NCBI GenBank assembly: GCA_045650705.1
Contig: JAZRRK010000055.1
Location: 13,842-77,841 of the forward strand
Reading direction: 5' to 3'
Source: Clostridia bacterium
GTDB taxonomy: Bacteria; Bacillota; Clostridia; TANB77; CAG-508
DNA: 64,000 nt
Positions 25,312 through 50,827 of the stretch are shown piece by piece. Made by a program: the position numbers and the translations under genes. The notes beneath the pieces were generated by a model. The model had not been told where the DNA came from. It did no database searches and saw only the letters and a program-made list of their open reading frames with translations. Position 1 is the first letter of the stretch, and every line of letters begins with the position of its first letter.

Positions 25312-25338
25312 TGTAGGGGAGACCATTGACCGTCCATG
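25312..25338 (+). repeat. Hairpin repeat family A, degenerate copy
   Basis: TGTAGGGGAGACCATTGACCGTCCATG versus consensus TGTAGGGGCGACCATTGGTCGTCCG. Confidence 0.6.
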
Positions 25339-25402
25339 TTTGAAGAAAATGCTAAATATTTAGTGGTAGATCTTGACTAATCTACAAAAGGAGGAAACAA
25401 TA

Positions 25403-26030
25403 ATGCAAATTAGGAAAATAATCTTTTTTATAATTATCATAATACTTATTTCATTGCTCACATTTTTTATAAAAAATAATTATAATTCTTCAAAAAAAGG
25501 AAATAATATAAGTAACAAATCAGCTGATGAAATTGAAGAATATATTTTAAATATAGATTCATATTATGCAATAGCACAGGTTACAGTACAGAGCAATAAA
25601 AGTAGTAATACTTATAAATTAAAACAAGAATATATAAAAAATCAAAACATGTATATGCAAGAAGTAATTGAACCAGAATATATTGCAGGAGTTAAATTTA
25701 TATATAATGAAGGAATACTAAAAATAGAAAATACAAATTTGAGTTTAAGCAAATTATATGAAGAATACAAATATATAGAAAGTAACGTACTTAGTTTAAA
25801 TTCATTTATTGAAGATTATGCGAATAGTGAAGAAAAAAAGTGCTATGAAGAAAATCGGAAAAATAATATTTGAAGTTACAAAGAGAAAAAATAATAAATA
25901 TGATATTAGCAAAAAAATGTATATAGATAAGGAACAAGGAAAAATAGAAAAAATTGAAATAAAAGATGGGACACAGAAGGATAAAATTTACATATTATAT
26001 AATGAGATAAAAATAAATACACTAAAATAA
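25403..26030 (+). CDS. YdcC/LolA-like sporulation lipoprotein-fold protein; frame broken at CGG_A 25856-25859
   Basis: ATG 25403 with AAGGAGG SD and N-terminal TM. ...SEEKKCYEEN, then skipping C25856, GKIIFEVTKRKNNKYDISKKMYIDKEQGKIEKIEIKDG joins ORF 25809-26030. Confidence 0.65.
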
Positions 26031-26121
26031 TAAAATAAAGATGAACTAATGAAGAATTAGAATCTCTATTACCTATATTTAAGATATAAAACAATATTTA
26101 ATATAGCAGGAGTGAAGAAAA

Positions 26122-26472
26122 ATGGTAATAAAAAGAGGAGATATGTTTTATGCAGATTTGAGTCCAGTAGTTGGCTCAGAACAAGGAGGTATAAGACCAG
26201 TTTTAGTAATACAAAACAATACTGGAAATAAATATAGCCCGACAGTTATAGTTTCAGCAATAACATCACAACAAAACAAAAACAAATTGCCAACGCATAT
26301 AGAACTTTCATCAGAAGAATTTGGATTAAAATCCGATTCTATAATATTGGCAGAACAAATAAGAACAATAGATAAAAGCAGACTAAAAGAAAAAATAGGG
26401 CACATAGATAATGATACTATAATGTCTCAAATAAATAATGCGTTAGGAGTAAGCTTTGGATTAGGTGAATAA
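26122..26472 (+). CDS. mazF: MazF/PemK (EndoA-type) endoribonuclease toxin
   Basis: [44 protein letters not shown] is highly EndoA-like. Confidence 0.9.
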
Positions 26473-26475
26473 ATT

Positions 26476-26505
26476 AAAATACCAGATTATATCTGGTATT
26501 TTAAT
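26476..26505 (+). terminator. Rho-independent terminator
   Basis: ATACCAGAT / ATCTGGTAT plus T-run. Confidence 0.75.
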
Positions 26506-26594
26506 TTTGTATAAGAGCTCAATTGACAAGATTCGACTTTTGCAGTATTATTATATGTAGTATATATACTATAAAATAAGAAGGAGAATTAAAA

Positions 26595-47102: not shown

Positions 47103-48563
47103 ATGGAATTAAAGTCTGTTATTGCAGGTATTGAAGGAATAAAAGGACATGGAAATCTTAATTTAGATATAAAATCAATTGAATGTGATTCAAGAAGAGT
47201 AGAAAAAGATGGAATGTTTGTTGCCATAAAAGGATTTGAAGCAGATGGTCATGAGTTTATAAAACAAGCTATTGATAATGGCGCATCAACGATTGTAATC
47301 CAAGAGGGAGCTAAATTAAGTAAGAAAGATATAAATGATTCTGTTACTATATTAATGGTACCTGATACAAGGAGTGCATTATCAAAAATAGCATGTAATT
47401 TCTATAATAATCCATCAAGAAAATTTACCTTAATAGGTATAACAGGAACAAAGGGAAAAACAACCACAACATTTATGATTAAAGCTATATTAGAACAGCA
47501 AGGTAAGAAAGTAGGACTAATAGGAACAGTAGCAAATTATATAGGAGATAAAAATTTAGGAGAAAGTTCAAGAACAACCCCAGATAGTTTAGAGTTACAA
47601 AAATTATTTAGTCAAATGGTAGAAGAACAGGTGGATACTGTTATAATGGAGGTTTCATCACAAGCGTTAAAACTACATAGAGTAGATGGATGTGATTTTG
47701 ATATAGCTGTATTTACAAATTTTTCAGAAGATCACATAAGTGAAAATGAACATCCTGATATGGAAGATTATTTTAATTCAAAATTAAAATTAATAAAATT
47801 AAGCAAAACTAGTTTTATTAACGCAGATGATTTTAAAGTTTCAAAAATCAAAAAAATGCTTCCAGAGAACAATATAAAATCTTATGGAATAGACAATGAA
47901 TCAGATTTATTAGCAAAGGACATAACAATAACAAATTCAAGTGTTGATTTTAAAGTAAAGATAGATGGAAAAAATGAGAGGGTAAAAACAGGAATACCAG
48001 GAAGATTTAGTGTTTATAATTCACTAGCTGCAATAAGTGTAGCAACGAAAATTGGAGCAAATGCAGAAAAGATAAAAGAAGCTCTTCTAAGTGTAAGAGT
48101 TCCAGGAAGAAGTGAGCTTGTAGACAATAAAAAAGGATTAACTATAATGGTAGATTATGCACACTCTCCAGAAAGTTTACAAAGTATATTAAGTGCGGTA
48201 AAAAGTTATACTAGAGGAAAAGTAATTGCTGTATTTGGATGTGGAGGAGATAGAGATAAAACAAAAAGACCTATAATGGGACAAATAGCAACAAATATTG
48301 CAGATTTTACAATAATAACATCAGATAATCCACGAACAGAGAATCCGGAGAAGATTATAGAAGAAATAGAAGCAGGAGCAAAAAAATCAAAAGGAAAATA
48401 TATAACGATAGAGAATAGAACAGAAGCTATAAAATATGCAGTAAATATGGCAACAAAAAATGATATAATAGTATTAGCTGGAAAAGGCCATGAAACATAT
48501 CAAGAGATAAATGGAGAGAAGAAGCACTACGATGAAAGAGAAATTATAAAGGAGGTAACTTAA
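47103..48563 (+). CDS. murE: UDP-N-acetylmuramoyl-L-alanyl-D-glutamate--2,6-diaminopimelate ligase
   Basis: [12 protein letters not shown]-loop, DNPR motif. Confidence 0.9.
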
Positions 48564-48565
48564 AA

Positions 48566-49547
48566 GTGTATTTCCAGACAAGAATTCTGTTTGTATCTTT
48601 TATTGCAACAGTAATTTTAGCTATATTTATAATACCAATATTAAAAAAATTTAAGATTGGACAGATTGAGAGAGAAGAAGGACCTCAAAGTCATTTAGGT
48701 AAAAGAGGTACACCTACAATGGGTGGAATAATAATCGCATTACGGAATTATTATTGGAACAATTGGTGGATATATATATTATTCTACAACAGATCCTGCA
48801 GTAGGAAGAAAATTATTTCCTTTATTACTTATATCAATAGGTTTTGGAGTTATAGGATTTATAGATGATTATAAAAAGCTTGTATTAAAAAATACAAAAG
48901 GTCTAAAACCTTCAAGCAAAATGTTAGGATTACTTATAATTTCTGTGTTATTTACATTATACTTGGTAGAAGGAGTTCATATAGGAACATCTACAATAAT
49001 ACCGTTTTTTAAACAGGAGATAGTTTTACCTATATTGTTATATATACCATTTGCAATTATAGTTATGCTGGCAACGACAAATGCAGTAAATTTAACTGAT
49101 GGTATTGATGGTTTAAGTACTAGTGTTTCAGCAATAATAACAACATGTCTTACAGTAATTGCAATAATTTTAGATGTAAAAGAAATAGTAGTATTTGGAA
49201 GTATAATAGTAGGAGCATGTTTAGGATTCTTAATTTTTAATTTAAATACTGCAAAAGTTTTTATGGGAGATACAGGTTCACTCTTATTAGGAGGAGTAAT
49301 CTCCGCCATGGCATTATATTTACAAATGCCACTTATACTACTAATAATAGCAGCAATACCAGTGTTAGAAACAATATCAGTTGTACTTCAGGTACTATAC
49401 TTTAAGAAAACAGGAGGAAAGAGACTATTAAAAATGGCACCTTTACATCACCATTTTGAATTATCAGGCTGGAAAGAAAATAAAGTAGTATCGGTATTTT
49501 GTATATTTACATTAATGCTATGTATAATAGGACTATGTTCTATATAA
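48566..49547 (+). CDS. mraY: Phospho-N-acetylmuramoyl-pentapeptide transferase MraY; frame broken at CGG_A 48743-48746
   Basis: GTG start; ...[12 protein letters not shown] then, skipping C48743, [46 protein letters not shown] continues into ORF 48921-49547. Confidence 0.85.
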
Positions 49548-49581
49548 ACAAAAGACATAATATACTAAGAAAGAGGTATTT

Positions 49582-50730
49582 ATGAAAAATAAAAAGAGTA
49601 GAGAAAATAATAAACCATTTGATTTTCTTTTATTTATGGTAGTATTAATATTATTAGGTATGGGCATAACTATGGTGTTATCAGCCAGTTCTCCAATGTC
49701 GCTTTCTACAACATCTAGTAGTTATACATATGTATCAAAGCAAGCAATATCCGCAGTATTAGGAATTGCAGTTATGCTAATAATATCAAAAATAGATTAT
49801 AAAATATATTCAAAATTCTACAAAATAATATGGATTGTCTCTATAATTGCTTTATTAGCCGTATTAATACCTGGAATAGGGGTTAGCGTTAAAGGAGCAA
49901 CAAGATGGATTAATTTCCCTATTTTTGGCTCAATACAACCATCAGAAATAACAAAGCTGGGATTAATAATATTCTTTGCTGCATATCTTACAATACATAG
50001 AAATGAATTAAAAGATTTAAAGAAAGGTTTTTTTAAACCAATAATATTTTTTGTGATGCCAGCAATAGCAATATTATTAGGTGTCCAATCACATTTAAGT
50101 GCATCAGTCTTAATAATTTTAACAGTATCGATTATGATGCTAATGGCAGGATGTAAATTTTCTCATTTTGCCATATTTGGAGGAGCAGGAGCAGTTTTAG
50201 GAGGAGGAGCATTATATGTCCTTGCTAAATATTTTGGAATAGGTGCATATAGGCTACAAAGACTAATAGCATTTGCAGATCCATGGGCAGACCCATTAGA
50301 TACAGGTTGGCAAATTATACAAGGACTATATGCAATAGGTTCAGGAGGATTATTCGGAGTAGGTTTAGGTAATAGTAGACAAAAATATCTATACATATCT
50401 GAGCCACATAATGATTATATATTTGCTGTACTTGCTGAAGAACTAGGATTTGTTGGATGTGTAATTGTAATGCTACTATTTGCAATATTTATCTGGAGAG
50501 GAACAATAATTGCTATGAAGGCACCAGATATGTTTGGAAGTTTATTAGCTTGTGGAATAACAGGATTAATAGGATTTCAAGCAATAATAAATATAGCAGT
50601 TGTAACATCATCAATGCCAGTTACAGGAATATCACTTCCATTTTTCAGCTACGGAGGAACATCACTAATAATTTTGCTTGCGTCGGTTGGAATACTACTC
50701 AATATATCAAGGCAAGCATCTAAAATTTAG
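49582..50730 (+). CDS. ftsW: SEDS-family peptidoglycan glycosyltransferase FtsW/SpoVE
   Basis: 10-TM SEDS sequence (PHNDYIFA, LPFFSYGGTS); dcw cluster position. Confidence 0.85.
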   Translation: MKNKKSRENNKPFDFLLFMVVLILLGMGITMVLSASSPMSLSTTSSSYTYVSKQAISAVLGIAVMLIISKIDYKIYSKFYKIIWIVSIIALLAVLIPGIGVSVKGATRWINFPIFGSIQPSEITKLGLIIFFAAYLTIHRNELKDLKKGFFKPIIFFVMPAIAILLGVQSHLSASVLIILTVSIMMLMAGCKFSHFAIFGGAGAVLGGGALYVLAKYFGIGAYRLQRLIAFADPWADPLDTGWQIIQGLYAIGSGGLFGVGLGNSRQKYLYISEPHNDYIFAVLAEELGFVGCVIVMLLFAIFIWRGTIIAMKAPDMFGSLLACGITGLIGFQAIINIAVVTSSMPVTGISLPFFSYGGTSLIILLASVGILLNISRQASKI

Positions 50731-50733
50731 AAT

Positions 50734-50827
50734 TGTAGGGGCGACCATTGGTCGTCCGTTCTACGAAGTAGTGCTATAAAAGCCCCTTTAACAAGGGGGC
50801 TGTCACCGTTAGGTGACTGGGGGTTCT
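50734..50827 (+). repeat. Composite multi-hairpin element B, short copy (begins with a family A hairpin)
   Basis: TGTAGGGGCGACCATTGGTCGTCCG...AGCCCCTTTAACAAGGGGGCTGTCACCGTTAGGTGACTGGGGGTTCT. Confidence 0.75.

Follow-up and report, generated by a model that had tools for sequence, protein, structure and literature searches.

Six copies of a short GC-rich hairpin repeat lie in a 64,000-nucleotide stretch of DNA from contig JAZRRK010000055.1 (hereafter the window), which belongs to a metagenome-assembled genome (MAG) of an uncultured gut Clostridia lineage. These six hairpins are very probably repetitive extragenic palindromes (REPs) of a Clostridia-wide family tied to a transposase resembling RAYTs (tyrosine transposases associated with REPs), and the repeats have most likely spread as single-stranded DNA. 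A first-pass annotation of the window had offered two readings of the repeat, a mobile element of the REP kind and an element acting at the level of RNA. The former is borne out by the combination of a tetranucleotide tag with a hairpin, by dispersed copies in unrelated flanks, by doublets and arrays in other genomes, by a RAYT-like gene that itself carries the repeat, and by differences in occupancy among relatives.

The repeat, (T)GTAGGGGCGACCATTGGTCGTCCG, is found only on the plus strand of the window, at sites within 1-2 nt of those originally proposed. With its filters disabled, a covariance model derived from 47 variants recovers exactly these six copies and no seventh; its minus-strand matches are weaker echoes at the same six sites only, and dinucleotide shuffles of the window yielded no match to the repeat. 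Two copies are perfect, one in the rpsQ-rplN spacer (33187-33211; 42.3 bits) and one 4 nt past the ftsW stop codon, upstream of murG (50734-50758; 47.7 bits), and the other four differ by one to four changes. The copy in the adk-map spacer (TGTAGCGGCGACCATTGGTCGTCCA, 39941-39965; 38.7 bits) has two substitutions (GTAGC..., ...CCA) and forms the center of a composite element, larger and itself folded. That in the rplB-rpsS spacer (TGTATGGGGCGACCATTGGTCGTCCG, 30810-30835; 32.5 bits), which reads GTATGGGG, combines a damaged tag (GTATG) with an intact hairpin. In the remaining two it is the stem that is damaged. The copy in the rplN-rplX spacer (TGTAGGGGGACCATTGGTCGTCTG, 33686-33709; 24.2 bits) is short of one base in its 5' stem, with a DNA fold of only -2.2 kcal/mol, while a decayed copy 74 nt past the divIVA stop codon (TGTAGGGGAGACCATTGACCGTCCA, 25312-25336; 21.0 bits, E 0.0016) retains its GTAG tag on a broken stem with four substitutions, whose DNA fold reaches only -0.3 kcal/mol.

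All six copies are intergenic and in the sense orientation relative to plus-strand genes, 4-74 nt past a stop codon. The flanking genes are those originally named, with DivIVA, S17, L14, L24, Adk, M24 Map, FtsW, and MurG recognized by Pfam and L2 and S19 identified separately; an exact look-up of the FtsW sequence gave no record. A hairpin followed by a T-run, read by eye rather than scanned, lies at about 25251-25280, upstream of the divIVA copy, so that this copy may sit between transcription units rather than within one. The window is AT-rich (GC about 0.24-0.32), and as its GC skew is positive almost throughout, with a cumulative skew that climbs steadily, the plus strand is probably leading-strand sequence. 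The possibility that the hairpins are intrinsic (Rho-independent) terminators was rejected, as a terminator scan of positions 25000-41000 found no T-run terminator among the five copies in that range and the 3' flank of the copy at 50734, outside it, has no T-run by eye. No match to Rfam 15 was obtained in the window at the gathering score, and the region 39850-40070 gave only chance-level matches at a permissive E-value.

The repeat unit comprises 24-26 nt in the order Y-GTAG, an 8-bp stem with a 3-nt loop, and G-Y. The GTAG tag stands 0 nt from the foot of the stem and is followed by GGGCGACC-ATT-GGTCGTCC, which form a GC-rich stem of 8 bp, one G·T pair included, rather than the 7 bp first described. 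In a logo drawn from 118 copies, the unit is 24 nt long with sharp borders and is flanked by a pyrimidine at either end, and the flank information content is about 0; the wobble T is kept in 114 of the copies. Among the 47 variants, stem positions covary (C:G to G:C or T:A, A:T to G:C) such that 97% of stem cells pair, and nine stem cells are changed on both sides, a number reached by none of 500 shuffles. Folded as single-stranded DNA, the top strand gives -6.5 kcal/mol and the bottom strand -4.9, the latter being weaker because the G·T turns into an A·C mismatch; the corresponding RNA folds are -13.8 and -8.9 kcal/mol. According to the first-pass annotation, the G·T pair works in RNA but not as a DNA palindrome. 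The top strand folds as single-stranded DNA too, however, and since transposases of this class act on single-stranded DNA hairpins, the strand asymmetry of the fold is real yet does not discriminate between RNA and single-stranded DNA.

Several features have been set out by which REPs are recognized (PMC6006769, PMC3733652): a GTAG or GTGG tetranucleotide 0-2 nt 5' of a hairpin, a basal stem of 7-20 fully paired nucleotides with a loop of 2-5 nt, at least three G or C among the first four stem bases, and a tnpA-REP gene no more than 1 kb from one or more of the copies. Here, GTAG abuts the stem in more than 94% of the 118 logo copies and, in the window, in five copies out of six. The 8-bp stem, with its 3-nt loop and GGGC as first four bases, conforms if its one conserved G·T wobble is allowed.

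The same repeat is widespread outside the window. An exact scan of one genome per species returned at least 119 loci, in which the full (T)GTAGGGGCGACCATTGGTCGTCCG occurs in at least 134 copies at about 85 or more loci, from roughly at least 65 species-level gut Clostridia assemblies; together with the six in 64 kb, these make up the many dispersed, mostly extragenic copies typical of REPs. The remaining matches of the scan have no GTAG tag, belong to GC-rich phyla, and appear fortuitous. Among the matches listed, carriers include Oscillospiraceae, Acutalibacteraceae, Faecousia, Ruminococcus, and unnamed MAGs, with a locus GC of 0.26-0.60 and unrelated flanks. Copies in these genomes are arranged as singles, as inverted doublets, and as tandem arrays, which is the repertoire described for REPs, bacterial interspersed mosaic elements (BIMEs), and REPINs (PMC3733652, PMC6006769). 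Inverted doublets with their GTAG ends outward occur in four loci (L031, L018, L044, and L073), separated by spacers of 54-105 nt without an open reading frame (ORF), the longest being that of L031 (105 nt); in L049 the copies form tandem arrays, running in either orientation, whose periods are 39 and 53 nt. Derivation of the spacer of low-GC inverted doublets from a decayed gene interior was also considered and rejected, no similarity being seen by inspection.

Two further observations concern the loci that carry the repeat. In L015, L053, L056, L097, and L004, other types of GTAG-tagged hairpin, for example TGTAGGGGAGGGGTTTCCCCTCCC, adjoin the repeat studied here, so that several REP families coexist in one genome, in line with the existence of several RAYT-like subfamilies. 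In two low-GC MAG loci the repeat falls, in the sense orientation, inside a long predicted ORF (L069, 1361-1384 on the minus strand in ORF 2-2386; L076, 6808-6831 on the minus strand in ORF 4859-6835), which reflects either an over-extended ORF start or an in-frame intragenic insertion.

Clustering of the ORFs of all repeat-bearing loci revealed one small family that recurred. Its members are proteins of about 160 amino acids with the N-terminal pattern ...RL..YDYS..GAYF.TICT, an HuH motif (MPDHIHLL), and the segment YIYENP, which corresponds to the Y---NP signature of class-2 TnpA-REP. ORFs in three loci (L016, L026, and L056) match the NCBIfam model REP_Tyr_transpos with an E-value of 1e-17. 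By sequence, the only relative in the PDB is the TnpA-REP of Escherichia coli (4ER8), in whose structure the positions W-Q...DH..R contact GTAG (PMC6006769); these positions are conserved in the RAYT-like protein. An AlphaFold2 model (pLDDT 81) likewise finds 4ER8 as its best Foldseek match (E 1.6e-7, TM 0.61), followed by the IS608, ISDra2, and IS200 transposases. The protein thereby joins the HuH motif, the Y---NP signature, and the IS200-like fold by which RAYT/TnpA-REP enzymes are known. Copies of the REP are found inside and beside the gene in L016, L026, L056, L126, and L130-L135, within the 1-kb distance given above. The family is large, with 1,036 homologues in a word-indexed search and, in an exhaustive search, 28,032 cluster representatives at E<1e-3 and 13,085 at E<1e-10, and database sources label its members just "transposase."

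The association between repeat and enzyme extends into the coding sequence. Inside the RAYT-like ORF the 24-mer occurs twice, in inverted orientation, with the HuH motif between the copies. The forward copy, GTA GGG GCG ACC ATT GGT CGT CCG, encodes V-G-A-T-I-G-R-P, and the reverse copy 146 nt downstream, GGA CGA CCA ATG GTC GCC CCT AC., encodes G-R-P-M-V-A-P-T; VGATIGRP is found in 101 and GRPMVAPT in 112 of the 120 best homologues. In three genes whose proteins are about 65% identical, codons are identical at 12 of 15 conserved degenerate positions in the motifs versus 16 of 57 elsewhere (p 6e-4), and in the L126 gene, of 34% GC, the embedded copies form islands of 57-63% GC, with more REPs just upstream and downstream. 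Codon identity and GC islands together argue that constraint acts on the DNA and not only on the protein. The first of the two loops is of low confidence in the AlphaFold2 model (pLDDT 56), and the second (GRPMVAP) is an insertion relative to 4ER8.

In other subfamilies of the protein, both loops are occupied by different GTAG hairpins, and their peptides vary together, one corresponding to the reverse complement of the other, as in the pairs VGADIIRP/GRMISAPT, VGEDIILP/GRMISSPT, VGAIINRP/GRLIIAPT, VGASIARP/GRAMLAPT, and VGANSVRP/GRTLFAPT. Among 65 cluster representatives with an 8-residue loop, the two loops are compatible with reverse complementarity exactly in 23 and within one residue in 36, against 3 and 16, respectively, of 325 mismatched loop controls. 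Of 76 further genes from metagenomes, 39 contain within them an exact inverted repeat 14 nt or longer, with GTAGG in the repeat in 37 of these 39, and in L057 a different 24-mer, again with one G·T, occupies both loop positions. An origin of the dispersed copies as fragments of the RAYT-like gene was rejected, as only 24-26 nt are shared and the flanks are without information. No mention of the intragenic arrangement, the peptides, or the sequence was found in the searchable REP/RAYT literature, a partial coverage that is no proof of novelty. Some RAYT-like ORFs (P0262 at L126 612-1292, P0007, P0145, and P0264) contain extra in-frame REP insertions or duplications beyond the canonical two, in P0262 for example GRPMVGNGRPMVAPT and VGAVNDRP, which suggests that the RAYT-like gene is itself a preferred landing site for REPs.

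It is possible, if rather doubtful, that the inverted pair is a working part of the system instead of an accident of insertion. This interpretation draws on the positions of the copies on either side of the HuH motif, on their maintained identity, both mutual and with the dispersed copies, and on the concerted change of repeat type between subfamilies. The pair could act as a master from which the repeat is inherited. Another possibility is a self-limiting switch, either because the enzyme would cut or excise its own gene between the two copies or because REP-containing transcripts of strongly expressed operons, the ribosomal-protein operon of the window for example, would pair with the complementary copy in the transposase mRNA and report copy number. 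Such a self-referential unit of transposase and repeat, if it exists, would be able to cross species and would explain the presence of an identical REP in about 65 or more of them.

Evidence bearing on mobility comes from relatives of the window at 88-96% nucleotide identity, in which the ribosomal-protein operon is kept while REP occupancy of its spacers differs. All relatives examined have a copy at the rplB-rpsS site, where the L120 type has diverged, with the core stem kept and GTAG lost. Between rpsQ and rplN, the window shares its copy with the relative L120, which has the variant GGCGACT-AGT-AGTCGTC, and a closer relative, L121, has none; the rplN-rplX copy occurs in the window only, being absent in both L120 and L121; and the adk-map copy is common to the window and L120. 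Relatives at about 90%, from mouse and pig gut metatranscriptome contigs, are without the element at three spacers. Such differing occupancy among close relatives fits mobility of the repeat. Furthermore, the three orthologous sites in L120 all have GGCGACT- in place of GGCGACC-, a change that looks like concerted replacement and not independent compensatory mutation.

The strict orientation bias initially reported for the window, six of six, weakens to about 2-3:1 elsewhere. In other genomes, singles between co-directional genes are sense in 17 cases and antisense in 7, or 23 and 7 with the window included (p 0.005), and other copies lie between divergent genes (9 singles) and convergent genes (17). 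In low-GC MAGs, five of five singles between co-directional genes are sense, 5-68 nt past the upstream stop codon. The top strand, which bears GTAG, also lies on the locally G-rich strand in a ratio of 48:16 (p 8e-5). As skew and gene direction never disagree in the 8-kb loci (13 sense and G-rich, 1 antisense and C-rich, no discordant cases), effects of replication and of transcription are not separable there. Insertion of top-strand single-stranded DNA into the lagging-strand template, as documented for IS608 and ISDra2 (PMC6006769), predicts the orientation observed, and selection for a sense RNA hairpin predicts the same.

These properties can be accommodated in a scheme in which the top strand of the repeat, as single-stranded DNA, is probably the substrate of the RAYT-like HuH/Y1 tyrosine transposase widespread in gut Clostridia. 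The enzyme presumably recognizes the hairpin together with its 5' GTAG and cuts beside it, and the unit would be moved or copied into single-stranded DNA exposed at the replication fork. The top strand would then come to lie on the lagging-strand template, here the G-rich plus strand, in spacers that follow genes and tolerate insertion. As the cognate gene family carries an inverted pair of its own REP in the ORF, REP and enzyme are inherited together, which may account for the recurrence of the same 24-mer in about 65 or more species. Catalysis by the RAYT-like protein, coupling to replication, and a RAYT-like gene, present now or in the past, in the genome to which the window belongs are inferred parts of the scheme. 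A co-transcribed hairpin may incidentally affect mRNA decay, an effect that would be at best secondary.

A number of observations weigh against assignment of the window repeats to a REP/RAYT system. Transcription accounts for the orientation bias equally well. The RAYT-like gene, found in other carrier genomes, was not found by tblastn within the 64-kb window, nor could any of 80 RAYT-like loci in a metagenome scan be attributed to the window lineage; L200, the only one of these loci at or below 0.30 GC, is without an inverted repeat. The protein also scores below curated cut-offs, with 63-64 bits against a required 80 for NF047646 and 20-22 against 23 for Pfam Y1_Tnp (PF01797), and it is for this reason named RAYT-like and regarded as a distinct subfamily. 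Spacer differences between the relatives are not clean insertions and have no readable target-site signature. All six window copies are single and in one orientation, with no REPIN doublets among them. Finally, REPs have been described as species-specific (PMC6006769), while an identical 24-mer is found here in about 65 or more assemblies with GC of 0.26-0.60, although species specificity is a usual property of REPs and not a strict definition.

Some of these observations would follow if the window copies were inert fossils, spread by an ancestral RAYT-like gene that has since been lost. Four of the six have substitutions or indels and two have damaged stems, no RAYT-like gene is present in the window, and occupation of the rplB-rpsS and adk-map sites in all relatives examined implies that those insertions are old. 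Yet two copies match the family consensus perfectly, two spacers are not uniformly occupied among relatives of 93-96% identity, and low-GC RAYT-like genes with the same REP type do exist (L126), the genome being viewed here through 64 kb. That the copies are now inert is judged unlikely.

The other reading offered in the first-pass annotation, whereby the repeat would chiefly be an RNA element under selection in polycistronic mRNAs, as a decay barrier, processing site, or protein-binding site that tunes the relative expression of neighboring cistrons, is less probable still. Some E. coli REPs stabilize mRNA, and the hairpins of the window resemble these in being co-transcribed in operon spacers, 3' of the upstream cistron; they are unlike them in that two of the six are broken or weak. 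The sense orientation of all six, 4-74 nt past a stop codon, the pooled bias of 23:7 and the five of five in low-GC MAGs, the stronger RNA hairpin of the top strand, and the survival of the core stem at the L120-type rplB-rpsS site despite loss of GTAG would all be expected of such an element. A primary role in RNA is nevertheless difficult to reconcile with a bias of only 17:7 outside the window, with copies between divergent genes, in inverted doublets and arrays, and inside ORFs, with broken or weak stems in two of the window copies, with relatives that lack the element at the same spacers, and with the absence of any Rfam family or terminator-like copy. Moreover, conservation of the sequence base by base across genomes of 26-60% GC is better suited to a sequence-specific enzyme or recent copying than to a generic hairpin. 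A double-stranded DNA motif read by a host protein, whether a polar chromosome-organizing or replication signal or a site for gyrase or a nucleoid protein as for E. coli BIMEs, hardly deserves credence, for while the 48:16 preference for the G-rich strand and the co-orientation of six copies along a rising cumulative skew would agree with it, that preference and gene direction are confounded, stem covariation in a unit of 24 nt is unlike the behavior of short polar motifs, copy presence varies among close relatives, and the strongest association is with a transposase-like gene.

The Clostridia repeats share much with the REP/BIME and TnpA-REP system of E. coli, including a short, imperfect, GC-rich hairpin with GTAG at its foot, numerous extragenic copies that lie mostly just past genes, clusters and inverted dimers, and REPs beside the gene for an HuH/Y1 enzyme with Y---NP, the W-Q..(D/E)H..R positions, and, in the AlphaFold2 model, the same fold as 4ER8. 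They differ in that a 24-mer identical in about 65 or more species of 26-60% GC is not species-specific, in that the gene carries an inverted REP pair within its ORF, in two loops bracketing the HuH motif, in that the protein falls below the NCBIfam RAYT cut-off, and in that their hosts are Clostridia, which are not covered by REP surveys in the searchable literature.

In the REPIN-RAYT systems of Pseudomonas and its relatives (PMC3116915, PMC5581495), inverted REP doublets (REPINs) are regarded, in Pseudomonas, as the mobile unit. Inverted doublets with a short spacer occur in other genomes of the present family, for example L031, and its variants behave as a population around a master sequence, as described by Bertels and Rainey; the window, by contrast, has only single copies in one orientation, the family spans many species and is not strictly lineage-bound, and a REPIN-like pair lies within the transposase gene itself. 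The IS200/IS605 elements IS608 and ISDra2, with their short derivatives, provide a further parallel, with hairpin single-stranded DNA ends for a Y1 HuH transposase, strand-specific chemistry, and the lagging-strand template as the place of insertion (PMC6006769). Here, however, the hairpins do not bracket the whole transposase gene, only a 24-nt unit being repeated, and neither tnpB nor a defined target tetranucleotide was seen.

REP/RAYT systems have been studied almost wholly in Proteobacteria, as species-specific repeats flanking a single-copy gene. Two properties set the Clostridia family apart from those known, the identity of the repeat across species and the inverted pair in the transposase ORF, neither of which is described in the searchable REP/RAYT literature, which does not treat Firmicutes. 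The family offers a tractable case for understanding how a transposase and a non-autonomous repeat stay matched. Its repeats are also of practical consequence as hot spots of spacer turnover inside core operons and as GC-rich islands in AT-rich genomes that yield recurrent spurious peptides (VGATIGRP, GRPMVAPT, and others) in ORF calls, and in gut metagenomes they could be a source of error for assembly, binning, and the search for RNA motifs.

Other repeated features share the spacers of the window with the REP copies. The composite element that surrounds the adk-map copy extends over 146 nt (39892-40037, plus strand), with an RNA minimum free energy of -67 kcal/mol (z -6.5). Of its two arms (AGAACCCTCC...AAGGAGGT and AGCCCCTT...GGGGGTTCT), one is an inverted copy of the other, and each comprises two small GC-rich hairpins. 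The right arm occurs alone at 50781-50826 on the plus strand, 22 nt past the REP that follows ftsW. An orthologous composite element is present in L120 (14871-15010), and the arms were found in the window lineage only, not among the 119 other loci listed.

A second family consists of long imperfect palindromes of about 120 nt, unrelated to the REP and resembling miniature inverted-repeat transposable elements, with ends AAACGAATGAAAAGC...GCTTTTGATTCGTTT and RNA fold z-scores of -2.5 to -8.2. These lie in spacers of the ribosomal-protein operon, at 29836-29944 and 39092-39213 on the minus strand and 35927-36050 and 38946-39076 on the plus strand of the window, at 7726-7847, 8388-8510, and 9731-9852 in L120, and at 3204-3325 in L121, so that the spacers occupied differ between the window and its relatives. 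Several ribosomal-protein genes have short tandem motifs rich in purines, of the type AATAGTGAATAGTGAATAGT, immediately upstream of their ribosome-binding sites (33214-33247, 34634-34667, 37103-37136, and 42252-42285), and such motifs also occur in spacers of L120 and L121. Lastly, the rplW-rplB spacer (29598-29963) is unusually long at 367 nt, with a similar length in L120 and L122, and contains a possible 46-codon ORF at 29600-29740 (MKEESFKEALRDFAKYGEILENPK...), a hairpin, CCGGAAGTGGTCCGG, at 29778-29792, and one of the long palindromes.

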